Shown: in pieces, positions 14,067-40,051 of the stretch
How positions within the stretch are numbered: the first letter of the stretch is position 1
Layout of the letters: each line of letters begins with the position of its first letter
From: Escherichia coli
Lineage (GTDB): Bacteria > Pseudomonadota > Gammaproteobacteria > Enterobacterales > Enterobacteriaceae
Reading direction: 5' to 3' (one strand)
Assembly (NCBI RefSeq): GCF_003018115.1
Contig: NZ_CP027457.1
DNA length: 64,000 bases
The notes under the pieces: generated by a model
The model's database searches: none
What the model was told of the DNA's origin: nothing
The model's input: only the letters and a program-made list of their open reading frames with translations
Program-made: the position numbers and the translations under genes

Positions 14067-14167
14067 GCCTGATGCGCTACGCTTATCAGGCCTACACGTA
14101 TCCTGCAATATATTGAATTAGCAGGTTTTTGTAGGCCGGATAAGGCGTTCACGCCGCATCCGGCATG
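14067..14167. repeat. BIME: two REP palindromic units in inverted orientation
   Basis: gcctgatgcgctacgcttatcaggcctac and gtaggccggataaggcgttcacgccgcatccggcatg match the REP consensus. Confidence 0.8.
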
Positions 14168-25757: not shown

Positions 25758-26990
25758 ATGGCAAAGGTATCGCTGGAGAAAGACAAGATTAAGTTTCTGC
25801 TGGTAGAAGGCGTGCACCAAAAGGCGCTGGAAAGCCTTCGTGCAGCTGGTTACACCAACATCGAATTTCACAAAGGCGCGCTGGATGATGAACAATTAAA
25901 AGAATCCATCCGCGATGCCCACTTCATCGGCCTGCGATCCCGTACCCATCTGACTGAAGACGTGATCAACGCCGCAGAAAAACTGGTCGCTATTGGCTGT
26001 TTCTGTATCGGAACAAACCAGGTTGATCTGGATGCGGCGGCAAAGCGCGGGATCCCGGTATTTAACGCACCGTTCTCAAATACGCGCTCTGTTGCGGAGC
26101 TGGTGATTGGCGAACTGCTGCTGCTATTGCGCGGCGTGCCGGAAGCCAATGCTAAAGCGCACCGTGGCGTGTGGAACAAACTGGCGGCGGGGTCTTTTGA
26201 AGCGCGCGGCAAAAAGCTGGGTATCATCGGCTACGGTCATATTGGTACGCAATTGGGCATTCTGGCTGAATCGCTGGGAATGTATGTTTACTTTTATGAT
26301 ATTGAAAACAAACTGCCGCTAGGCAACGCCACTCAGGTACAGCATCTTTCTGACCTGCTGAATATGAGCGATGTGGTGAGTCTGCATGTACCAGAGAATC
26401 CGTCCACCAAAAATATGATGGGCGCGAAAGAAATTTCACTAATGAAGCCCGGCTCGCTGCTGATTAATGCTTCGCGCGGTACTGTGGTGGATATTCCGGC
26501 GCTGTGTGATGCGCTGGCGAGCAAACATCTGGCGGGGGCGGCAATCGACGTATTCCCGACGGAACCGGCGACCAATAGCGATCCATTTACCTCTCCGCTG
26601 TGTGAATTCGACAACGTCCTTCTGACGCCACACATTGGCGGTTCGACTCAGGAAGCGCAGGAGAATATTGGCCTGGAAGTTGCGGGTAAATTGATCAAGT
26701 ATTCTGACAATGGCTCAACGCTCTCTGCGGTGAACTTCCCGGAAGTCTCGCTGCCACTGCACGGTGGGCGTCGTCTGATGCACATCCACGAAAACCGTCC
26801 GGGCGTGCTAACTGCGCTGAACAAAATCTTCGCCGAGCAGGGCGTCAACATCGCCGCGCAATATCTACAAACTTCCGCCCAGATGGGTTATGTGGTTATT
26901 GATATTGAAGCCGACGAAGACGTTGCCGAAAAAGCGCTGCAGGCAATGAAAGCTATTCCGGGTACCATTCGCGCCCGTCTGCTGTACTAA
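25758..26990 (+). CDS. serA: D-3-phosphoglycerate dehydrogenase (410 aa)
   Basis: MAKVSLEKDKIKFLLVEGVHQKALESLRAAGY N-terminus; NAD-binding GYGHIGTQ; C-terminal ACT domain. Confidence 0.95.
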   Translation: MAKVSLEKDKIKFLLVEGVHQKALESLRAAGYTNIEFHKGALDDEQLKESIRDAHFIGLRSRTHLTEDVINAAEKLVAIGCFCIGTNQVDLDAAAKRGIPVFNAPFSNTRSVAELVIGELLLLLRGVPEANAKAHRGVWNKLAAGSFEARGKKLGIIGYGHIGTQLGILAESLGMYVYFYDIENKLPLGNATQVQHLSDLLNMSDVVSLHVPENPSTKNMMGAKEISLMKPGSLLINASRGTVVDIPALCDALASKHLAGAAIDVFPTEPATNSDPFTSPLCEFDNVLLTPHIGGSTQEAQENIGLEVAGKLIKYSDNGSTLSAVNFPEVSLPLHGGRRLMHIHENRPGVLTALNKIFAEQGVNIAAQYLQTSAQMGYVVIDIEADEDVAEKALQAMKAIPGTIRARLLY

Positions 26991-27010
26991 TTCCCCTTCT
27001 CTGAAAATCA

Positions 27011-27042
27011 ACGGGCAGGTCACTGACTTGCCCGTTTTTTTA
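27011..27042 (+). terminator. intrinsic terminator after serA
   Basis: acgggca/tgcccgt stem followed by a 7-T run. Confidence 0.7.
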
Positions 27043-27174
27043 TCCCTTCTCCACACCGTTGCCGCGTTGCGCATTCTACTTTGCGAGTCTGCTCCAGAAA
27101 ATAAATCAAAGTCAGATCAATGCGTTGTGTTTATTTAATGGGGATTTACGATGGCAGGACAGCATAGGGCTGTA

Positions 27175-27330
27175 ACGGTAAAGCCCTCACCGAAGCGAGG
27201 GCTTGAAGGAGAAGGGTTATGATGCGACTTGTCATCATACTGATTGTACTGTTACTCATAAGTTTCCCAGCTTATTAACAGTCAGTCTCAGGGGAGGAGT
27301 CATCCTCCCTTACCCTTACTCACTAAATTA
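27175..27330 (-). ncRNA. sibC: Sib-family antisense RNA (antitoxin) opposite ibs copy 1; ends approximate
   Basis: Inferred from the conserved Ibs/Sib architecture (antisense RNA spanning the whole toxin ORF and its SD); flanking hairpins at 27181..27204 and 27289..27310; ends not determinable from sequence alone. Confidence 0.4.
27219..27278 (+). CDS. ibsC: Ibs-family type I toxin peptide, 19 aa (MMRLVIILIVLLLISFPAY), copy 1
   Basis: ATG ATG start with GAAGGAGAAGGG SD; 19-codon hydrophobic ORF matching the Ibs family; below the ORF-track size threshold. Confidence 0.7.
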   Translation: MMRLVIILIVLLLISFPAY

Positions 27331-27359
27331 GGTCAAAGAATCAACGATGTCAATCAGGG

Positions 27360-27427
27360 CGATGCGGGATGTATCGCCCTGAACCGATCATTTGGATGCG
27401 GGATGTATCGCCCTGAACCGATCATTT
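27360..27427. repeat. 34-bp perfect tandem duplication carrying a hairpin
   Basis: ggatgcgggatgtatcgccctgaaccgatcattt occurs twice head to tail; unit contains the inverted repeat agggcgat..atcgccct. Confidence 0.85.
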
Positions 27428-27600
27428 GATAGACACTTCATCGCCCACGTTTACTGCCGTAATTAATCCCTTATCCCTGCAATGTGTGTCTGTCTTACAT
27501 GACGTTTTACGAGTGCGCTCGAAGAAAAAATTTAAAGGTAGATCAATGCATTGTGCATATTTAAAGAGAGTTTACGATGGCAGGGCAGCATGGGGCTGTA

Positions 27601-27756
27601 ACGGTAAAGCCCTCACCGAAGCGAGGGCTTGAAGGAGAAGGGTTATGATGCGACTTGTCATCATACTGATTGTACTGTTACTCATAAGTTTCAGCGCTTA
27701 TTAACAGTCAGTCACAGGGGAGGAGCAATCCTCCCTTACCCTTACTCACTAAATTA
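27601..27756 (-). ncRNA. sibC: Sib-family antisense RNA opposite ibs copy 2; ends approximate
   Basis: Paralogous to the copy-1 region at about 90 percent identity; same inference. Confidence 0.4.
27645..27704 (+). CDS. ibsC: Ibs-family type I toxin peptide, 19 aa (MMRLVIILIVLLLISFSAY), copy 2
   Basis: Same SD and ORF structure as copy 1, 426 bp downstream; peptide matches IbsC as I recall it. Confidence 0.7.
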   Translation: MMRLVIILIVLLLISFSAY

Positions 27757-27804
27757 GGTTAAAGAATCAACGATGTCAATCAGGGCGATGCAGGTGTGTC
27801 GCCC

Positions 27805-28353
27805 TCACCACTCCCAGACTTTCGACGGTGTAACCACCGCAGGAAGAGGGATATCCCACTCTTCAACGGGGAGTTTTTCCACCAACTGACAATCATGCGC
27901 ATAACCCACCGGTTGCATTTTATAGTGCTGCCAGTTTTGTAAGGTCCGATCATAAAAACCACCGCCCATTCCCAGGCGCTGGCCGTACTCATCAAAGGCG
28001 ACCAGCGGTGTGATCAACACGTCTAATCGGGAAAGGGGTAGCACGTCACGCACATCCAATTTTGGCTCATGGATCTTCAACCTGTTCATCACCAGTTCGC
28101 TTTGCGGATGGTAATTCAGGAACAGCAAATTACCGGCACTAAAGGGATGCAAAACTGGAAGATATACGCGCTTACCGGCGCGCCAGAGTTGTTCTATGAG
28201 TGGCTGGGTGTCGAGTTCGCCATCAAAAGAGAGGAATACAGCGACCGTATGTGCCATCACCACCGGGGGATAAGTCATCATCCGGGTAGCGGCTTGTTGA
28301 CCCATTTCCTGCTGTTGTTCCGGCGTTAACGTACGACGACGTTGCCGAATCAT
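27805..28353 (-). CDS. fau: 5-formyltetrahydrofolate cyclo-ligase (182 aa from ATG 28353; alternative upstream ATG at 28407)
   Basis: Translation MIRQRRRTLTPEQQQEMGQQAATRM...; sits immediately downstream of ssrS on the same strand; the long track ORF reading into ssrS is an artefact. Confidence 0.8.
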   Translation of the reverse strand: MIRQRRRTLTPEQQQEMGQQAATRMMTYPPVVMAHTVAVFLSFDGELDTQPLIEQLWRAGKRVYLPVLHPFSAGNLLFLNYHPQSELVMNRLKIHEPKLDVRDVLPLSRLDVLITPLVAFDEYGQRLGMGGGFYDRTLQNWQHYKMQPVGYAHDCQLVEKLPVEEWDIPLPAVVTPSKVWEW

Positions 28354-28423
28354 TTTGCGGATTTCTTGTCGGGATAATGTCAGTGGGAGTTCTGGTAGTT
28401 GCGTCATGGCTGGTGCCAGATAA

Positions 28424-28611
28424 GAAGGGAATCTCCGAGATGCCGCCGCAGGCTGTAACCCTTGAACCCTTGGTTCAAGGTGAATGTGTCGTCGCAGTTT
28501 TAAGGCTTCTCGGACGGACCGAGCATGCTCACCAACCGCGGAGCGCCACATTCTTGTGGTATGAAATATCGGCTCAGGGGACTGGCCCGCTTGCGAACAT
28601 CTCAGAGAAAT
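28424..28611 (-). ncRNA. ssrS: 6S RNA
   Basis: Minus-strand sequence reads AUUUCUCUGAGAUGUUCGCAAGCGGGCCAGUCCCCUGAGCCGAUAUUUCAUACCACAAG...GGAGAUUCCCU, matching E. coli 6S RNA as recalled; ends within a few nt. Confidence 0.9.
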
Positions 28612-28652
28612 TTTGTCTTCACGGTTACTCTACCACAGTAAACCGAAAAGTG

Positions 28653-29048
<396 letters not shown>

Positions 29049-29149
29049 CTATAGCTACCCTGATGAGAAGAGACAAGCCCTTTTCTGGTCCACCAGGGCC
29101 CAAAGTGGTAGCATATCATGAATATTCCTCCCTTTGACGACGAATGCTT

Positions 29150-29728
29150 ATGTCTATACAGAACGAAATGCCTGGTTACAACGAAATGAACCAGTATCTG
29201 AACCAACAAGGGACGGGTCTGACCCCTGCTGAGATGCATGGTTTAATCAGTGGGATGATATGTGGCGGTAACGATGACAGCTCATGGCTGCCGCTACTTC
29301 ACGACCTGACGAACGAAGGCATGGCTTTCGGTCATGAGCTGGCACAGGCACTGCGTAAAATGCACTCTGCCACCAGCGATGCCCTGCAGGATGACGGCTT
29401 CCTTTTTCAGCTTTATCTGCCTGATGGCGATGATGTCAGCGTTTTCGATCGGGCTGATGCGCTGGCAGGTTGGGTCAATCACTTCCTGCTTGGTCTTGGC
29501 GTTACGCAACCGAAGCTGGACAAAGTGACCGGCGAAACCGGTGAAGCCATCGACGATCTGCGTAACATCGCGCAGTTGGGCTACGACGAAGACGAAGATC
29601 AGGAAGAGCTTGAAATGTCGCTTGAAGAGATCATCGAGTACGTCCGTGTTGCCGCGCTGTTATGCCACGACACCTTTACTCATCCGCAACCGACCGCGCC
29701 AGAAGTACAAAAACCGACTCTACACTAA
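29150..29728 (+). CDS. ygfB: UPF0149-family protein (192 aa)
   Basis: [32 protein letters not shown]-terminus; first gene of the ygfB-pepP-ubiH-ubiI cluster. Confidence 0.85.
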
Positions 29729-29753
29729 AAACAAAAAACGTAAGGAGAGTGTT

Positions 29754-31079
29754 ATGAGTGAGATATCCCGGCAAGAGTTTCAGCGTCGCCGTCAGGCCCT
29801 GGTGGAGCAAATGCAACCCGGCAGCGCCGCGCTGATTTTTGCTGCACCAGAAGTAACACGTAGCGCCGACAGCGAATACCCCTATCGTCAGAACAGTGAC
29901 TTCTGGTACTTCACCGGCTTTAACGAACCGGAAGCGGTGCTGGTGCTGATTAAAAGCGATGACACTCATAACCACAGCGTTCTGTTTAACCGCGTTCGCG
30001 ACCTGACGGCGGAGATCTGGTTTGGCCGTCGTTTAGGTCAGGATGCCGCGCCAGAGAAACTGGGCGTTGACCGCGCACTGGCATTCAGCGAAATTAATCA
30101 GCAACTTTATCAACTACTTAATGGTCTGGATGTGGTTTACCACGCCCAGGGCGAATATGCATATGCTGATGAAATCGTGAACAGCGCGCTTGAGAAACTG
30201 CGTAAAGGTTCGCGGCAAAATCTCACCGCGCCGGCAACGATGATCGACTGGCGTCCCATTGTTCATGAAATGCGCCTGTTCAAATCGCCGGAAGAGATTG
30301 CCGTACTTCGCCGCGCGGGTGAAATCACCGCCCTGGCGCATACCCGGGCGATGGAAAAATGCCGTCCGGGAATGTTCGAGTACCACCTGGAAGGCGAAAT
30401 TCACCACGAATTTAACCGCCACGGCGCGCGCTATCCTTCCTATAACACCATTGTCGGCAGCGGTGAAAACGGCTGCATTCTGCATTACACCGAAAACGAG
30501 TGTGAACTGCGCGACGGCGATCTGGTGTTGATTGACGCGGGTTGCGAATACAAAGGTTACGCTGGCGATATTACCCGCACCTTCCCGGTCAACGGCAAAT
30601 TCACTCAGGCTCAGCGTGAAATCTACGACATTGTGCTGGAGTCTCTCGAAACCAGCCTGCGCCTGTATCGTCCGGGAACTTCCATTCAGGAAGTCACCGG
30701 TGAAGTGGTGCGCATCATGGTTAGCGGCCTGGTAAAACTCGGCATCCTGAAAGGTGATGTTGATGAACTGATCGCTCAGAACGCCCATCGTCCTTTCTTT
30801 ATGCATGGCCTTAGCCACTGGTTAGGGCTGGATGTCCATGACGTTGGCGTTTATGGTCAGGATCGCTCGCGCATTCTGGAACCGGGCATGGTACTGACCG
30901 TAGAGCCAGGGCTGTATATTGCGCCGGATGCAGAAGTGCCAGAACAATATCGCGGTATCGGCATTCGTATTGAAGACGACATTGTGATTACCGAAACCGG
31001 TAACGAAAACCTCACCGCCAGCGTGGTGAAAAAGCCGGAAGAAATCGAAGCATTGATGGCAGCTGCGAGAAAGCAATGA
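29754..31079 (+). CDS. pepP: Xaa-Pro aminopeptidase (441 aa)
   Basis: MSEISRQEFQRRRQALVEQMQPGSAALIFAAPE N-terminus; M24 metallopeptidase domain; ATG 29754 with AAGGAGAG SD. Confidence 0.95.
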   Translation: MSEISRQEFQRRRQALVEQMQPGSAALIFAAPEVTRSADSEYPYRQNSDFWYFTGFNEPEAVLVLIKSDDTHNHSVLFNRVRDLTAEIWFGRRLGQDAAPEKLGVDRALAFSEINQQLYQLLNGLDVVYHAQGEYAYADEIVNSALEKLRKGSRQNLTAPATMIDWRPIVHEMRLFKSPEEIAVLRRAGEITALAHTRAMEKCRPGMFEYHLEGEIHHEFNRHGARYPSYNTIVGSGENGCILHYTENECELRDGDLVLIDAGCEYKGYAGDITRTFPVNGKFTQAQREIYDIVLESLETSLRLYRPGTSIQEVTGEVVRIMVSGLVKLGILKGDVDELIAQNAHRPFFMHGLSHWLGLDVHDVGVYGQDRSRILEPGMVLTVEPGLYIAPDAEVPEQYRGIGIRIEDDIVITETGNENLTASVVKKPEEIEALMAAARKQ

Positions 31080-32254
31080 GCGTAATCATCGTCGGTGGCG
31101 GCATGGCGGGCGCGACGCTGGCGCTGGCTATTTCCCGGTTAAGTCACGGGGTGTTGCCGGTACATCTGATTGAAGCGATCGCACCAGAGTCACATGCCCA
31201 TCCAGGCTTTGATGGCCGGGCTATTGCGCTGGCAGCAGGCACTTGTCAGCAGCTGGCGCGCATCGGTGTCTGGCAATCTCTGGCCGATTGCGCAACCGCC
31301 ATCACCACCGTTCATGTCAGCGATCGCGGCCATGCCGGATTCGTCACTCTTGCCGCAGAAGATTATCAACTGGCGGCGCTAGGGCAGGTTGTCGAATTGC
31401 ACAATGTTGGGCAACGGCTGTTTGCGCTGTTGCGTAAAGCACCAGGCGTCACGCTGCATTGTCCGGATCGCGTGGCTAACGTTGCCCGTACTCAGAGTCA
31501 TGTTGAAGTGACGCTGGAGTGTGGCGAGACGCTAACGGGCCGCGTGCTGGTAGCCGCTGATGGCACCCATTCAACGTTAGCCACTGTGTGCGGCGTTGAC
31601 TGGCAGCAGGAGCCTTACGAACAACTGGCTGTGATTGCCAACGTTGCGACTTCCGTTGCGCATGAAGGGCGAGCTTTTGAACGCTTTACGCAACATGGCC
31701 CGCTGGCGATGTTGCCGATGTCTGACGGACGCTGTTCGCTGGTCTGGTGTCATCCACTGGAACGGCGCGAAGAGGTGCTGTCGTGGAGCGACGAGAAGTT
31801 TTGCCGTGAACTCCAGTCGGCCTTTGGCTGGCGACTTGGGAAAATTACCCACGCTGGTAAACGCAGTGCTTATCCGCTGGCGTTAACCCACGCCGCCAGA
31901 TCTATTACCCATCGTACCGTGCTGGTGGGCAATGCGGCGCAAACCCTGCACCCGATTGCCGGGCAAGGGTTCAACCTCGGTATGCGAGATGTCATGAGTC
32001 TTGCGGAAACCCTGACTCAGGCGCAGGAGCGCGGAGAAGACATGGGTGATTACGGCGTATTGTGTCGTTATCAGCAGCGTCGACAGAGCGATCGCGAAGC
32101 AACCATTGGCGTCACGGACAGCCTTGTACATCTTTTTGCCAACCGATGGGCGCCGCTGGTTGTCGGGCGCAACATCGGGCTGATGACGATGGAATTATTT
32201 ACCCCGGCACGCGATGTGCTGGCGCAGCGCACCCTCGGTTGGGTGGCGCGTTGA
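31076..32254 (+). CDS. ubiH: 2-octaprenyl-6-methoxyphenol hydroxylase, FAD-dependent (392 aa)
   Basis: MSVIIVGGGMAGATLALAIS FAD-binding N-terminus; start overlaps the pepP stop. Confidence 0.9.
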   Translation: MSVIIVGGGMAGATLALAISRLSHGVLPVHLIEAIAPESHAHPGFDGRAIALAAGTCQQLARIGVWQSLADCATAITTVHVSDRGHAGFVTLAAEDYQLAALGQVVELHNVGQRLFALLRKAPGVTLHCPDRVANVARTQSHVEVTLECGETLTGRVLVAADGTHSTLATVCGVDWQQEPYEQLAVIANVATSVAHEGRAFERFTQHGPLAMLPMSDGRCSLVWCHPLERREEVLSWSDEKFCRELQSAFGWRLGKITHAGKRSAYPLALTHAARSITHRTVLVGNAAQTLHPIAGQGFNLGMRDVMSLAETLTQAQERGEDMGDYGVLCRYQQRRQSDREATIGVTDSLVHLFANRWAPLVVGRNIGLMTMELFTPARDVLAQRTLGWVAR

Positions 32255-32276
32255 AGGCGGTTTTAAGGAATAAACA

Positions 32277-33479
32277 ATGCAAAGTGTTGATGTAGCCATT
32301 GTTGGCGGCGGCATGGTGGGGCTGGCGGTTGCCTGCGGCTTACAGGGTAGCGGCTTACGCGTTGCCGTACTGGAGCAGCGCGTACCGGAACCTCTGGCGG
32401 CGGATGCACCACCACAACTGCGCGTTTCGGCTATCAATGCCGCCAGCGAAAAATTACTCACCCGTCTTGGCGTCTGGCAGGACATTCTCTCTCGTAGGGC
32501 CAGTTGTTATCACGGCATGGAAGTGTGGGACAAAGACAGTTTTGGTCACATTTCGTTTGACGATCAAAGCATGGGCTATAGCCATCTTGGGCATATCGTT
32601 GAAAACTCAGTGATTCACTACGCGCTGTGGAACAAAGCGCATCAGTCGTCAGATATCACTCTGTTGGCCCCCGCAGAATTACAGCAGGTCGCCTGGGGAG
32701 AAAACGAAACCTTCCTGACGCTGAAAGATGGCAGCATGTTAACGGCGCGTCTGGTGATTGGTGCGGATGGCGCTAATTCCTGGTTGCGCAACAAAGCCGA
32801 TATTCCGCTGACTTTCTGGGATTATCAGCATCACGCGCTGGTGGCGACCATTCGCACGGAAGAACCGCATGATGCGGTGGCGCGGCAGGTTTTCCACGGC
32901 GAAGGCATTCTGGCCTTTTTGCCGCTTAGCGATCCGCATCTTTGCTCGATTGTCTGGTCCCTATCGCCAGAGGAAGCGCAGCGGATGCAGCAGGCAGGGG
33001 AAGGCGAATTTAATCGCGCGTTAAATATCGCTTTTGATAATCGCCTGGGCTTATGCAAGGTCGAGAGCGAGCGTCAGGTGTTCCCGCTGACGGGGCGTTA
33101 TGCGCGCCAGTTTGCCGCACATCGTCTGGCGCTGGTGGGCGACGCCGCGCATACCATTCACCCACTGGCGGGGCAGGGCGTTAATCTCGGCTTTATGGAC
33201 GCCGCAGAGCTGATTGCTGAACTGAAACGGTTGCATCGTCAGGGTAAAGACATCGGGCAGTACATTTATCTGCGCCGCTATGAGCGTAGTCGCAAGCACA
33301 GTGCGGCACTGATGCTGGCAGGTATGCAGGGCTTTCGCGATCTCTTTTCCGGCGCTAATCCGGCGAAAAAACTGCTGCGCGATATTGGTCTGAAACTGGC
33401 TGATACACTTCCTGGCGTTAAGCCGCAACTTATCCGTCAGGCAATGGGATTAAACGATTTGCCTGAGTGGCTGCGTTAA
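32277..33479 (+). CDS. ubiI: 2-octaprenylphenol hydroxylase, FAD-dependent (400 aa)
   Basis: MQSVDVAIVGGGMVGLAVACGLQGSG FAD-binding N-terminus; paralogue of ubiH. Confidence 0.9.
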   Translation: MQSVDVAIVGGGMVGLAVACGLQGSGLRVAVLEQRVPEPLAADAPPQLRVSAINAASEKLLTRLGVWQDILSRRASCYHGMEVWDKDSFGHISFDDQSMGYSHLGHIVENSVIHYALWNKAHQSSDITLLAPAELQQVAWGENETFLTLKDGSMLTARLVIGADGANSWLRNKADIPLTFWDYQHHALVATIRTEEPHDAVARQVFHGEGILAFLPLSDPHLCSIVWSLSPEEAQRMQQAGEGEFNRALNIAFDNRLGLCKVESERQVFPLTGRYARQFAAHRLALVGDAAHTIHPLAGQGVNLGFMDAAELIAELKRLHRQGKDIGQYIYLRRYERSRKHSAALMLAGMQGFRDLFSGANPAKKLLRDIGLKLADTLPGVKPQLIRQAMGLNDLPEWLR

Positions 33480-33522
33480 AAATTTCTCTTCTGCTGTTTA
33501 TTTGATACGCATCACACTTTCA

Positions 33523-33550
33523 TCTCCCGGTTTTTTCGCCGGGAGATTTT
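33523..33550 (+). terminator. intrinsic terminator after ubiI
   Basis: tctcccgg/ccgggaga stem followed by a T-run. Confidence 0.7.
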
Positions 33551-33925
33551 CCTCATTTGAAATAAACTAATTTCACCTCCGTTTTCGCATTATATTTTCT
33601 AATGCCATGATTTTTTGATTTAGTGTTTTTTGACATTTTTTTAGCTCTTAATATTGTCTTATTCAAATTGACTTTCTCATCACATCATCTTTGTATAGAA
33701 ACTGGTGTGTTTTTTGGTTTTTTATTCTGTCGCGATTTTTGCATTTTTTAACCATAAGCTAATGTGATGATCAATTTTACCTTATGGTTAACAGTCTGTT
33801 TCGGTGGTAAGTTCAGGCAAAAGAGAACGATTGCGTTGGGGACCGGGAGTGGCTCCGATGCTGGGTTTCGTGGTGATAATTTCACCATGAAAAGTTGTCA
33901 GCCCCGCTTATTCAATGAGGACAAG
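33551..33925 (+). promoter_or_regulatory. gcvTHP control region: AT-rich 5-prime leader and promoter
   Basis: About 375 bp, highly AT-rich, upstream of gcvT; GcvA/Lrp/PurR/CRP sites are expected from the literature but not mapped here. Confidence 0.5.
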
Positions 33926-35020
33926 ATGGCACAACAGACTCCTTTGTACGAACAACACACGCTTTGCGGCGCTCGCATGGTGGATTTCCACGGGTGGATG
34001 ATGCCGCTGCATTACGGTTCGCAAATCGACGAACATCATGCGGTACGTACCGATGCCGGAATGTTTGATGTGTCACATATGACCATCGTCGATCTCCGCG
34101 GCAGCCGCACCCGGGAGTTTCTGCGTTATCTGCTGGCGAACGATGTGGCGAAGCTCACCAAAAGCGGCAAAGCCCTTTACTCGGGGATGTTGAATGCCTC
34201 TGGCGGTGTGATAGATGACCTCATCGTCTACTACTTTACTGAAGATTTCTTCCGCCTCGTTGTTAACTCCGCCACCCGCGAAAAAGACCTCTCCTGGATT
34301 ACCCAACACGCTGAACCTTTCGGCATCGAAATTACCGTTCGTGATGACCTTTCCATGATTGCCGTGCAAGGGCCGAATGCGCAGGCAAAAGCTGCCACAC
34401 TGTTTAATGACGCCCAGCGTCAGGCGGTGGAAGGGATGAAACCGTTCTTTGGCGTGCAGGCGGGCGATCTGTTTATTGCCACCACTGGTTATACCGGTGA
34501 AGCGGGCTATGAAATTGCGCTGCCCAATGAAAAAGCGGCCGATTTCTGGCGTGCGCTGGTGGAAGCGGGTGTTAAGCCATGTGGCTTGGGCGCGCGTGAC
34601 ACGCTGCGTCTGGAAGCGGGCATGAATCTTTATGGTCAGGAGATGGACGAAACTATTTCTCCTTTAGCCGCCAACATGGGCTGGACTATCGCCTGGGAAC
34701 CGGCAGATCGTGACTTTATCGGTCGTGAAGCCCTGGAAGTGCAGCGTGAGCATGGTACAGAAAAACTGGTTGGTCTGGTGATGACCGAAAAAGGCGTGCT
34801 GCGTAATGAACTGCCGGTACGCTTTACCGATGCGCAGGGCAACCAGCATGAAGGCATTATCACCAGCGGTACTTTCTCCCCGACGCTGGGTTACAGCATT
34901 GCGCTGGCGCGCGTGCCGGAAGGTATTGGCGAAACGGCGATTGTGCAAATTCGCAACCGTGAAATGCCGGTTAAAGTGACAAAACCTGTTTTTGTGCGTA
35001 ACGGCAAAGCCGTCGCGTGA
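33926..35020 (+). CDS. gcvT: glycine cleavage system T protein, aminomethyltransferase (364 aa)
   Basis: [39 protein letters not shown]-terminus; ATG at 33926. Confidence 0.95.
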
Positions 35021-35043
35021 TTTACTTTTTTGGAGATTGATTG

Positions 35044-35433
35044 ATGAGCAACGTACCAGCAGAACTGAAATACAGCAAAGAACACGAATGGCTGCGTAAA
35101 GAAGCCGACGGCACTTACACCGTTGGTATTACCGAACATGCTCAGGAGTTGTTGGGCGATATGGTGTTTGTTGACCTGCCGGAAGTGGGCGCAACGGTTA
35201 GCGCGGGCGATGACTGCGCGGTTGCCGAATCGGTAAAAGCGGCGTCAGACATTTATGCGCCAGTAAGCGGTGAAATCGTGGCGGTAAACGACGCACTGAG
35301 CGATTCCCCGGAACTGGTGAACAGCGAACCGTATGCAGGCGGCTGGATCTTTAAAATCAAAGCCAGCGATGAAAGCGAACTGGAATCACTGCTGGATGCG
35401 ACCGCATACGAAGCATTGTTAGAAGACGAGTAA
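35044..35433 (+). CDS. gcvH: glycine cleavage system H protein, lipoyl carrier (129 aa)
   Basis: [34 protein letters not shown]; lipoyl-lysine context [11 protein letters not shown]. Confidence 0.95.
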
Positions 35434-35551
35434 CGGCTTTATTCCTCTTCTGCGGGAGAGGATCAGGGTGAGGAAAATTTATGCCTCACCCTCACTCTCT
35501 TCGTAAGGAGAGAGGTTCACAATTCACTGCACGTTTCAGGAACCATCGCTC

Positions 35552-38425
35552 ATGACACAGACGTTAAGCCAGCTTGAAAACAGCGGCGCTTTTATTGAAC
35601 GCCATATCGGACCGGACGCCGCGCAACAGCAAGAAATGCTGAATGCCGTTGGCGCACAATCGTTAAACGCGCTGACCGGCCAGATTGTACCGAAAGATAT
35701 TCAGCTTGCGACCGCGCCGCAGGTTGGCGCACCGGCGACCGAATACGCCGCACTGGCAGAACTCAAGGCTATTGCCAGTCGCAATAAACGCTTCACGTCT
35801 TACATCGGCATGGGTTACACCGCCGTGCAGCTACCGCCGGTTATCCTGCGTAACATGCTGGAAAATCCGGGCTGGTATACCGCGTATACTCCGTATCAAC
35901 CTGAAGTCTCTCAGGGCCGCCTTGAAGCACTGCTCAACTTCCAGCAGGTAACGCTGGATTTAACCGGGCTGGATATGGCCTCTGCTTCTCTTCTTGACGA
36001 AGCCACCGCTGCCGCCGAAGCAATGGCGATGGCGAAACGCGTCAGCAAACTGAAAAATGCCAACCGCTTCTTCGTGGCTTCCGATGTGCATCCGCAAACG
36101 CTGGATGTGGTCCGTACTCGTGCCGAAACCTTTGGTTTTGAAGTGATTGTCGATGATGCGCAAAAAGTGCTCGACCATCAGGACGTCTTCGGCGTGCTGT
36201 TACAGCAGGTTGGCACTACCGGTGAAATTCACGACTACACTGCGCTTATCAGCGAACTGAAATCACGCAAAATTGTGGTCAGCGTTGCCGCTGATATTAT
36301 GGCGCTGGTGCTGTTAACTGCGCCGGGTAAACAGGGCGCTGATATTGTTTTTGGTTCGGCGCAACGCTTTGGCGTACCGATGGGTTACGGTGGCCCACAC
36401 GCGGCATTCTTTGCGGCGAAAGACGAATACAAACGCTCAATGCCAGGCCGTATTATCGGTGTATCGAAAGATGCAGCTGGCAATACCGCGCTGCGCATGG
36501 CGATGCAGACTCGCGAGCAACATATTCGTCGTGAGAAAGCGAACTCCAACATTTGTACTTCCCAGGTGCTGCTGGCAAACATCGCCAGCCTGTATGCCGT
36601 TTATCACGGCCCGATTGGCCTGAAACGTATCGCTAACCGCATTCACCGTCTGACTGATATCCTGGCGGCAGGCCTGCAACAAAAAGGTCTGAAGCTGCGC
36701 CATGCGCACTATTTCGACACTCTGTGTGTGGAAGTGGCCGACAAGGCGGGCGTACTGGCGCGTGCCGAAGCGGCTGAAATCAACCTGCGTAGCGATATCC
36801 TGAACGCGGTTGGGATCACCCTTGATGAAACCACCACGCGCGAAAACGTGATGCAGCTTTTCAGCGTACTACTGGGGGATAATCACGGGCTGGACATCGA
36901 CACGCTGGACAAAGACGTGGCTCACGACAGCCGCTCTATCCAGCCTGCGATGCTGCGCGACGACGAAATCCTCACCCATCCGGTGTTTAATCGCTACCAC
37001 AGCGAAACCGAAATGATGCGCTATATGCACTCGCTGGAGCGTAAAGATCTGGCGCTGAATCAGGCGATGATCCCGCTGGGTTCCTGCACCATGAAACTGA
37101 ACGCCGCCGCCGAGATGATCCCAATCACCTGGCCGGAATTTGCCGAACTGCATCCGTTCTGCCCGCCGGAGCAGGCCGAAGGTTATCAGCAGATGATTGC
37201 GCAGCTGGCTGACTGGCTGGTGAAACTGACCGGTTACGACGCCGTTTGTATGCAGCCGAACTCTGGCGCACAGGGCGAATACGCGGGCCTGCTGGCGATT
37301 CGTCATTATCATGAAAGCCGCAACGAAGGGCATCGCGATATCTGCCTGATCCCTGCCTCTGCGCACGGCACTAACCCGGCTTCCGCGCATATGGCAGGAA
37401 TGCAGGTGGTGGTTGTGGCGTGTGATAAAAACGGCAACATCGATCTGGCTGATCTGCGCGCGAAAGCGGAACAGGCGGGCGATAACCTCTCCTGTATCAT
37501 GGTGACCTATCCTTCCACCCACGGCGTGTATGAAGAAACGATCCGTGAAGTGTGTGAAGTCGTGCATCAGTTCGGCGGTCAGGTTTACCTTGATGGCGCG
37601 AACATGAACGCCCAGGTTGGCATCACCTCGCCGGGCTTTATTGGCGCAGACGTTTCACACCTTAACCTGCATAAAACTTTCTGCATTCCGCACGGCGGTG
37701 GTGGTCCGGGTATGGGACCGATCGGCGTGAAAGCGCATCTGGCTCCGTTTGTACCGGGTCATAGCGTGGTGCAAATCGAAGGCATGTTAACCCGTCAGGG
37801 CGCAGTTTCTGCGGCACCGTTCGGTAGCGCCTCTATCCTGCCAATCAGCTGGATGTACATCCGCATGATGGGCGCAGAAGGGCTGAAAAAAGCAAGCCAG
37901 GTGGCAATCCTCAACGCCAACTATATTGCCAGCCGCCTGCAGGATGCCTTCCCGGTGCTGTATACCGGTCGCGACGGTCGCGTGGCGCACGAATGTATTC
38001 TCGATATTCGCCCGCTGAAAGAAGAAACCGGCATCAGCGAGCTGGATATTGCCAAGCGCCTGATCGACTACGGTTTCCACGCGCCGACGATGTCGTTCCC
38101 GGTGGCGGGTACGCTGATGGTTGAACCGACTGAATCTGAAAGCAAAGTGGAACTGGATCGCTTTATCGACGCGATGCTGGCTATCCGCGCAGAAATTGAC
38201 CAGGTGAAAGCCGGTGTCTGGCCGCTGGAAGATAACCCGCTGGTGAACGCGCCGCACATTCAGAGCGAACTGGTCGCCGAGTGGGCGCATCCGTACAGCC
38301 GTGAAGTTGCGGTATTCCCGGCAGGCGTGGCAGACAAATACTGGCCGACAGTGAAACGTCTGGATGATGTTTACGGCGACCGTAACCTGTTCTGCTCCTG
38401 CGTACCGATTAGCGAATACCAGTAA
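35552..38425 (+). CDS. gcvP: glycine dehydrogenase (decarboxylating), P protein (957 aa)
   Basis: [23 protein letters not shown]-terminus; PLP-dependent. Confidence 0.95.
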
Positions 38426-38447
38426 TTCACTGATTCGACTATCTTCT

Positions 38448-38470
38448 AAAGGCGCTTCGGCGCCTTTTTA
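38448..38470 (+). terminator. intrinsic terminator after gcvP
   Basis: ggcgc-ttcg-gcgcc hairpin followed by TTTTT; A-run upstream suggests it could act bidirectionally. Confidence 0.75.
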
Positions 38471-38544
38471 GCTTGTTAATAAAGTGCGCTTTGTGTGTTT
38501 CGGCTGAGGCGTAATATAAAATCTTGCGAGCTCAATATATTAAA

Positions 38545-38590
38545 AGAGTGCCAGGCCTGATGAGCGTATCGCATCAGGCACATCGGCTAA
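38545..38590. repeat. REP palindromic unit
   Basis: gccaggcctgatgagcgtatcgcatcaggcacatcggc resembles the REP consensus. Confidence 0.6.

Positions 38591-40051
<1,461 letters not shown>

Follow-up and report, generated by a model that had tools for sequence, protein, structure and literature searches.

Type I toxin-antitoxin loci of the ibs-sib, ldr-rdl and zor-orz kinds were described as showing tandem duplication of their modules, with a copy number that is lineage-specific (Fozo et al., 2010, PMC2887945). The sibC/ibsC locus of Escherichia coli K-12 (Rfam RF00113, Pfam PF13956) is composed of a single module in the interval between serA and fau, and its antitoxin RNA, SibC, is 141 nt long with defined ends (PMC2943612). 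The locus analysed here lies in a stretch of 64,000 nucleotides of an E. coli contig, NZ_CP027457.1, which we refer to in its full length as the window. It shares with K-12 the position between serA and fau, the Sib promoter, RNA and terminator, the IbsC protein (in module 2) and a hairpin between the fau stop codon and the Sib -35 hexamer, and it differs from K-12 in having two modules, a S17P variant of Ibs in module 1 and an extra 34-bp unit in the spacer. The presence of whole ibs-sib modules duplicated in tandem at serA-fau agrees with the pattern described for these loci, whereas the 34-bp repeat does not, being a piece of non-coding spacer and not a module (Fozo et al., 2010, PMC2887945). 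The architecture is that of the common two-module serA-fau allele (as in EC1515, O145 RM9872, strain 108 and FORC_043), from which the window differs in its period (426 bp versus 392/393 bp), owing to the repetition of one 34-bp unit. With respect to the Rfam SIB_RNA family, the duplication is located outside the part covered by the model (27203-27353) and outside both mapped Sib RNAs. Whole-module duplication is, then, already known and the two-module state is common, while the repetition of the 34-bp unit is very rare.

Rho-terminated RNAs without a canonical intrinsic terminator are trimmed back to a protective hairpin, and REP-type elements act as stabilisers of this kind. The stem-loop at the duplication is similar to such 3'-end-protecting stem-loops, as it has a GC-rich stem and no U-tract and as, in K-12, an abundant 3' end was mapped 4 nt past the stem and Rho dependence was detected nearby. 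Nevertheless, it differs from the REP-type ones in being an element of a single locus, and not a member of a dispersed family, and in having one of its arms duplicated.

The reading we favour, with a probability of about 0.75, is that of a genuine, derived, single-origin duplication of 34 bp of spacer, which is selectively neutral and gives rise, at most, to a minor ibs-sense isoform longer by 34 nt; its anatomy, rarity and derived state, and the 3' end in K-12, are shown by the data, and its neutrality and the limit to a minor isoform are what we infer.

The sibC/ibsC site and its two tandem modules

In the RefSeq annotation of near-identical genomes the gene order is serA, ibs, ibs, fau, ssrS, zapA. 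In line with this order, two matches to SIB_RNA were obtained on the - strand, at 27203-27353 (137.6 bits) and 27629-27779 (134.6 bits), both well above the gathering score of 56 of Rfam RF00113, and 6S RNA was identified by Rfam at 28428-28611. Since K-12 has a single module, sibC/ibsC, in the equivalent interval, the locus is the sibC/ibsC site of K-12, here in the form of two tandem modules (Table 1). The modules repeat with a period of 426 bp and have a 289-nt core that is 90% identical between module 1 and module 2. The ends of the Sib RNAs were mapped from the annotated 141-nt K-12 SibC and, in both modules, the antisense Sib RNA covers the whole of the Ibs open reading frame (18-19 hydrophobic amino acid residues), whose homologous genes are annotated with PF13956. 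The module 1 protein is the S17P variant.

Table 1. Features of the serA-fau interval, with coordinates in the window.
Feature	Coordinates	Strand	Description
serA	25758..26990	+	left boundary gene; intrinsic terminator 27010-27036
Sib antitoxin RNA, module 1	27177..27317	-	141 nt, mapped from K-12 sibC; Rfam SIB_RNA 137.6 bits
ibs toxin ORF, module 1	27219..27278	+	MMRLVIILIVLLLISFPAY
Sib-1 promoter	27325..27353	-	-35 TTGACA 27353..27348, 17-nt spacer, -10 TAATTT 27330..27325, TSS 27317
Module-1 hairpin	27355..27381	+	9-bp stem CAGGGCGAT (27355-27363)/ATCGCCCTG (27373-27381), 9-nt loop
Tandem unit 1	27361..27394	.	GATGCGGGATGTATCGCCCTGAACCGATCATTTG
Predicted ibs-sense RNA 3' end, module 1	27384..27385	+	by homology to K-12 3056785(-); inside unit 1
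Tandem unit 2	27395..27428	.	identical to unit 1; absent from parental alleles
Spare right arm made by the duplication	27407..27415	+	ATCGCCCTG; able to pair with the only left arm
Sib antitoxin RNA, module 2	27603..27743	-	Rfam SIB_RNA 134.6 bits
ibs toxin ORF, module 2	27645..27704	+	protein identical to K-12 IbsC (WP_010723220.1)
Module-2 hairpin	27782..27805	+	AGGGCGAT-GCAGGTGT-GTCGCCCT; final base shared with the fau stop codon (its first base, on the opposite strand)
fau (ygfA), 5-formyltetrahydrofolate cyclo-ligase	27805..28407	-	right boundary gene
Junction k-mer of the 34-bp duplication			CCCTGAACCGATCATTTGGATGCGGGATGTATCG

Along 27080-27805 of the window, the module cores are at least 90% identical, and divergence is much greater in the spacers that precede the ibs promoters. 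A third state of the interval was observed in E. coli O157:H7 TR01 (NZ_CP033605.1), which has no ibs/sib module between serA and fau, only a spacer of ~208 bp; the serA-fau locus therefore exists in 0-, 1- and 2-module states. Elsewhere in the window, Rfam also returned a match to the ES036 (CssrF) sRNA, at 14088-14130 on the - strand in the fbaA-mscS region (40.0 bits, gathering score 37.6).

The duplicated 34 bp and the adjoining stem-loop

A perfect 34-bp tandem repeat had been noted at 27360-27427 in the original prediction; the repeat stands, the frame is one base off. Two perfect head-to-tail units were identified at 27361-27428 by Tandem Repeats Finder (period 34, 2.0 copies, 100% matches, score 136), and a second repeat search returned the identical two units at the same position. 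The array is composed of exactly 2.0 units, as the base at 27360 (C) differs from that at 27394 (G) and the base at 27429 (A) from that at 27361 (G). No further copy of the unit, allowing up to 3 mismatches, is present in the 64-kb window, the unit did not occur in any of 100 shuffles, and Rfam recognised nothing in the spacer or the unit, either at the gathering threshold over the whole window or at E values up to 1 over 27340-27600. Each unit contains one GATC (27386 and 27420). Two small open reading frames that run over the array (23 amino acid residues on the - strand and 24 on the + strand) were rejected, being without support and having their frame shifted by the duplication.

Microhomology was sought at the breakpoints of the duplication and none was found (C/G ... 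G/A). The lack of a direct repeat at the breakpoints and an array that does not exceed 2.0 units rule out a microhomology-mediated slippage duplication, and classical slippage between short repeats is not indicated as the origin. Thus, of the recent slippage or recombination event that had been proposed, a derived event on an older allele is retained (see below), and slippage, in the absence of microhomology, is not. A replication error at the hairpin is our guess for the cause.

The module-1 hairpin, which starts 1 nt upstream of the Sib-1 -35 hexamer, folds at -22 kcal/mol as + strand RNA and is a copy carried along in the whole-module duplication. Unit 1 comprises the last 3 nt (GAT) of its left arm, the loop, the entire right arm and 13 more bases, and covers also the predicted ibs-sense 3'-end site together with 9-10 nt past that site. 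The inverted repeat was previously said to be duplicated; it is present, although not duplicated as a whole, since the unit has only the GAT of the left arm. As most of the left arm is lacking, the duplication created no second hairpin, only a spare right arm 34 nt downstream, and unit 2 by itself does not fold (-5 kcal/mol, z +1.2).

At the equivalent position in module 2 a single diverged hairpin had been noted, and we confirmed it at 27782-27805. This module-2 hairpin, like that of K-12, adjoins the fau stop codon. The stop codon is TGA in the window (27805-27807) and TAA in K-12, and in both cases its final A opens the stem on the fau strand; therefore, the fau stop and the ibs-sense 3' stem-loop share DNA. 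Upstream of sibA, sibB, sibD and sibE in K-12 the hairpin is absent, so that it is confined to the sibC locus. The stem is kept in ten of the ten allele variants collected, with no compensatory double change seen among them; the sole change in the stem is an A to G opposite U, which the + strand accommodates as a wobble pair and which leaves the - strand with a C-A mismatch.

In a scan for terminator and promoter consensus sequences the only terminator flagged was that of serA (27010-27036), and the scan missed both the hairpin and the Sib promoters. In fact, the hairpin is not followed by a U/T tract (tails: + strand, GAACCGATCA; - strand, ATTGACATCG), and a GC-rich stem without a T-run on either strand rules out a canonical intrinsic terminator.

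Term-seq data from K-12 suggest what the stem may be for. In the curated table of Adams et al. (2021, PMC7815308, supplementary file 1) a dominant K-12 3' end is given at 3056785(-), with 140,250 reads in LB at OD 0.4 and 146,380 reads in a second condition, and its sole classification there is "antisense to fau". The 61-nt string published for this end matches the K-12 sequence exactly, and places the 3' end 4 nt past the last base of the stem, on the ibsC-sense strand. A Rho termination region was reported on the same strand, with its peak at 3056905(-) and a Rho score of 4.41 (PMC7815308, supplementary file 2). The most fitting interpretation of the hairpin is thus a stem-loop at which an ibs-sense RNA has its 3' end, as had been anticipated when the hairpin was called a possible ibs 3' structure, and it seems plausible that this 3' end results from Rho-terminated transcripts trimmed back to the stem. 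By northern blot, the ibsC mRNA was estimated at ~160 nt (Han et al., 2010, PMC2943612), a size that is discrepant with, being smaller than, that of an RNA spanning the 5' UTR to the hairpin, and an abundant ibsC-sense RNA ending at the hairpin is described neither in Han et al. (2010, PMC2943612) nor in Fozo et al. (2010, PMC2887945).

The same Term-seq data contain a second strong ibsC-sense 3' end, at K-12 3056960(-), in the ibsC 5' UTR, 11 nt before the open reading frame (PMC7815308). It directly follows the sequence complementary to the SibC terminator hairpin, which may therefore act in both directions. Neither of the two ibsC-sense 3' ends was discussed as such with the published data (PMC7815308). 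Their equivalents in the window are at ~27809 and ~27385, for 3056785(-), and at ~27208 and ~27634, for 3056960(-).

Consequences for promoters and RNAs

The 34-bp unit starts at 27361, outside the Sib RNA (TSS 27317), the Sib core promoter (-35 end 27353) and the ibs open reading frame (end 27278). Its start is 8 bp upstream of the -35 hexamer of Sib-1, and the inferred ibs-2 promoter (~27551-27578) is more than 120 bp away from the array. The Sib-1 sequence from -35 to -77 is identical to that of the parental allele, only the DNA beyond -77 being displaced, by 34 bp. An effect on the Sib promoter had been considered in the original prediction; the intact promoter-proximal copy, from -35 to -77, speaks against it. 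A tandem duplication spares the copy nearest to the flank and, therefore, the Sib-1 promoter, the Sib RNAs, the ibs open reading frames and the proximal hairpin are unchanged. The sole molecule that could differ is an ibs-1 sense RNA reading past 27394.

Because the unit starts inside the left arm, the duplication took in everything from the loop to ~10 nt past the 3'-end site, right arm included, and left the left arm single. The proximal hairpin, transcribed and folded first, would still define the 3' end. The main ibs-1 3' end is thus predicted to stay at ~27385, and an isoform with its end near 27419 would be a minor one at most.

The alternative that best withstands the data, although we consider it rather unlikely, is a function at the level of this RNA, in which the spare arm provides the ibs-1 RNA with a longer and more stable 3' hairpin and the stability of the module-1 toxin mRNA is altered, either by moving the 3' end 34 nt downstream or by changing the protection from 3' exonucleases. 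Folding predictions lend this some weight: taken each alone, the long alternative hairpin has -31.8 kcal/mol and the proximal one -22.1 kcal/mol, so that the former is more stable by 9.7 kcal/mol, and in a 191-nt model transcript of the + strand the left arm pairs, at equilibrium, with the proximal arm with a probability of 0.67 and with the spare arm with a probability of 0.33, whereas in the pre-duplication allele the proximal hairpin has a probability of 0.998. On the - strand the proximal hairpin prevails (0.96 versus 0.03 for pairing with the spare arm). The K-12 data point the same way, since the hairpin coincides there with an abundant 3' end that has no U-tract and has Rho nearby, which fits trimming to a protective stem. 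Nevertheless, the proximal hairpin can fold before the spare arm exists and is, even at equilibrium, the majority state (0.67), the ibs open reading frame and the regions of pairing with Sib are upstream and unchanged, and the allele is very rare, with no sign of selection. A two-state ibs-1 3' stem-loop, either the short proximal hairpin or the more stable one longer by 34 nt, that alters the module-1 3' end, its stability or the read-through into module 2 has, in our estimate, a slightly smaller chance still. If true, the window would carry a naturally occurring variant in which the balance between toxin and antitoxin is shifted for one of the paralogues.

Less probable by a clear step is an effect on transcription initiation, through a changed region upstream of Sib-1, a changed spacing between the divergent Sib-1 and ibs-2 promoters, or the duplication of a protein-binding or Dam (GATC) site. 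The closeness of the unit to the -35 hexamer (8 bp) and the GATC at 27386 and 27420 are compatible with such an effect, and Han et al. (PMC2943612) mentioned, as unpublished, putative sites for transcription factors upstream of ibs promoters. However, positions -36 to -77 of Sib-1 are the same as in the parental allele, with displacement only beyond -77, the inferred ibs-2 promoter is separated from the duplication by more than 120 bp, and no known binding motif was identified.

Distribution and origin of the duplication

We searched 5,426 complete RefSeq E. coli genomes and found two-module alleles, recognised by the presence of the spacer after the hairpin, in 1,857 of them (~34%); 54 of these are at least 99% identical to the window's unit plus flank, 53 of them with the parental allele. 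The duplication was traced with a 51-mer over the unit boundary, a probe that cannot match a single-unit genome under megablast. The junction was found in one of the 5,426 genomes, that of strain AB66 (NZ_OZ547461.1), and the other 1,856 two-module genomes have a single unit. The exact junction had no match in GTDB representative genomes or in JGI metagenome contigs. In EC1515, O145 RM9872 and GCA_010669025.1 the exact unit is present once and the alignment lacks exactly 34 bp, the spacer sequence of the EC1515/RM9872-type allele being likewise that of the window, while other two-module alleles have a diverged single unit of 35 bp. Draft assemblies were located by exact look-up of the window's GcvP, since Fau was too unspecific (26,002 blocks), and two of them, GCA_012667485.1 and GCA_902845645.1, carry the junction, each being 99.996% identical to the window over 22.9 kb. 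The copy number behaves like that of a VNTR, with two units in AB66, the window, GCA_012667485.1 and GCA_902845645.1, and none seen with more than two.

An alignment of the locus across the population had been suggested as a check, and its outcome, a single-unit parental allele and a junction in 1 of 5,426 complete genomes, supports the proposed duplication: as judged from these alignments, it is derived, having taken place on a pre-existing single-unit allele. The junction is not private to one strain, as AB66 carries it in an identical 1.5-kb haplotype: AB66 is identical to the window over 27232-28760, and the parental-type alleles differ at 27550, 27557, 27982 and more positions. Because there is no microhomology to drive recurrence and the 1.5-kb haplotype is shared, we take the shared junction as a single event; from the sequences compared, one origin, followed by inheritance or by recombination of the 1.5-kb haplotype, seems to be the best explanation.

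Over 27156-27231, in an otherwise identical stretch, AB66 and the window are set apart by a cluster of six substitutions, in module 1 only, which affect the ibs 5' UTR and the first codons (Ibs MMRFFIIL...); its appearance is that of a small patch introduced by gene conversion from a different ibs paralogue. Over the 12 kb of core genes at 28000-40000, identity to the window reaches at most 98.9% among complete RefSeq E. coli genomes, the best being O169:H41 strains, and the lineage of the window is therefore unrepresented among RefSeq complete genomes. GCA_012667485.1, GCA_902845645.1 and CP050207.1 are 99.996-100% identical to the window.

The last of these records bears on the possibility that the duplication is an artefact of assembly or sequencing, which was named in the original prediction as what could refute it and which we regard as highly improbable. 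CP050207.1 has flanks 100% identical to those of the window and yet a single unit, which speaks for an artefact. However, this record, labelled as a 5.76-Mb chromosome, has ~1,500 N within the 22.9-kb locus, where the N runs vary from 31 to ~1,066 bases and interrupt core genes, ubiH/ubiI and bglA among them; it may represent a consensus guided by, and biased towards, a reference, and because of the N runs its unit count is untrustworthy either way. The junction is shared by four independent assemblies (the window, GCA_012667485.1, GCA_902845645.1 and AB66), each more reliable at this point than CP050207.1, and the array, of 68 bp, is spanned by single short reads, which argues for a real duplication.

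The expansion in place of a dispersed REP/BIME-like palindromic element, suggested by a GC-rich imperfect palindrome of REP-like size at a gene end that protects an RNA 3' end, is just as hard to sustain, given that the window has no other copy even with 3 mismatches, that across the 5,426 genomes the element occurs in one place per genome (at most two), always at the sibC locus, and that it has no Rfam match down to E = 1 and is absent upstream of the other sib genes.

Returning to the neutral, single-origin duplication, it is most likely an ordinary rare indel polymorphism in a non-coding spacer and a probable harmless lineage marker, which matters little on its own. What needs correcting is the identity of the locus, which is the sibC/ibsC site in its two-module state, found in about one third of E. 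coli. The junction is a near-unique marker with which the lineage, or the recombined 1.5-kb haplotype, can be tracked, and the two-unit and the exact one-unit alleles constitute a natural pair with which the hairpin between fau and the Sib promoter and the ibsC-sense 3' end can be probed.
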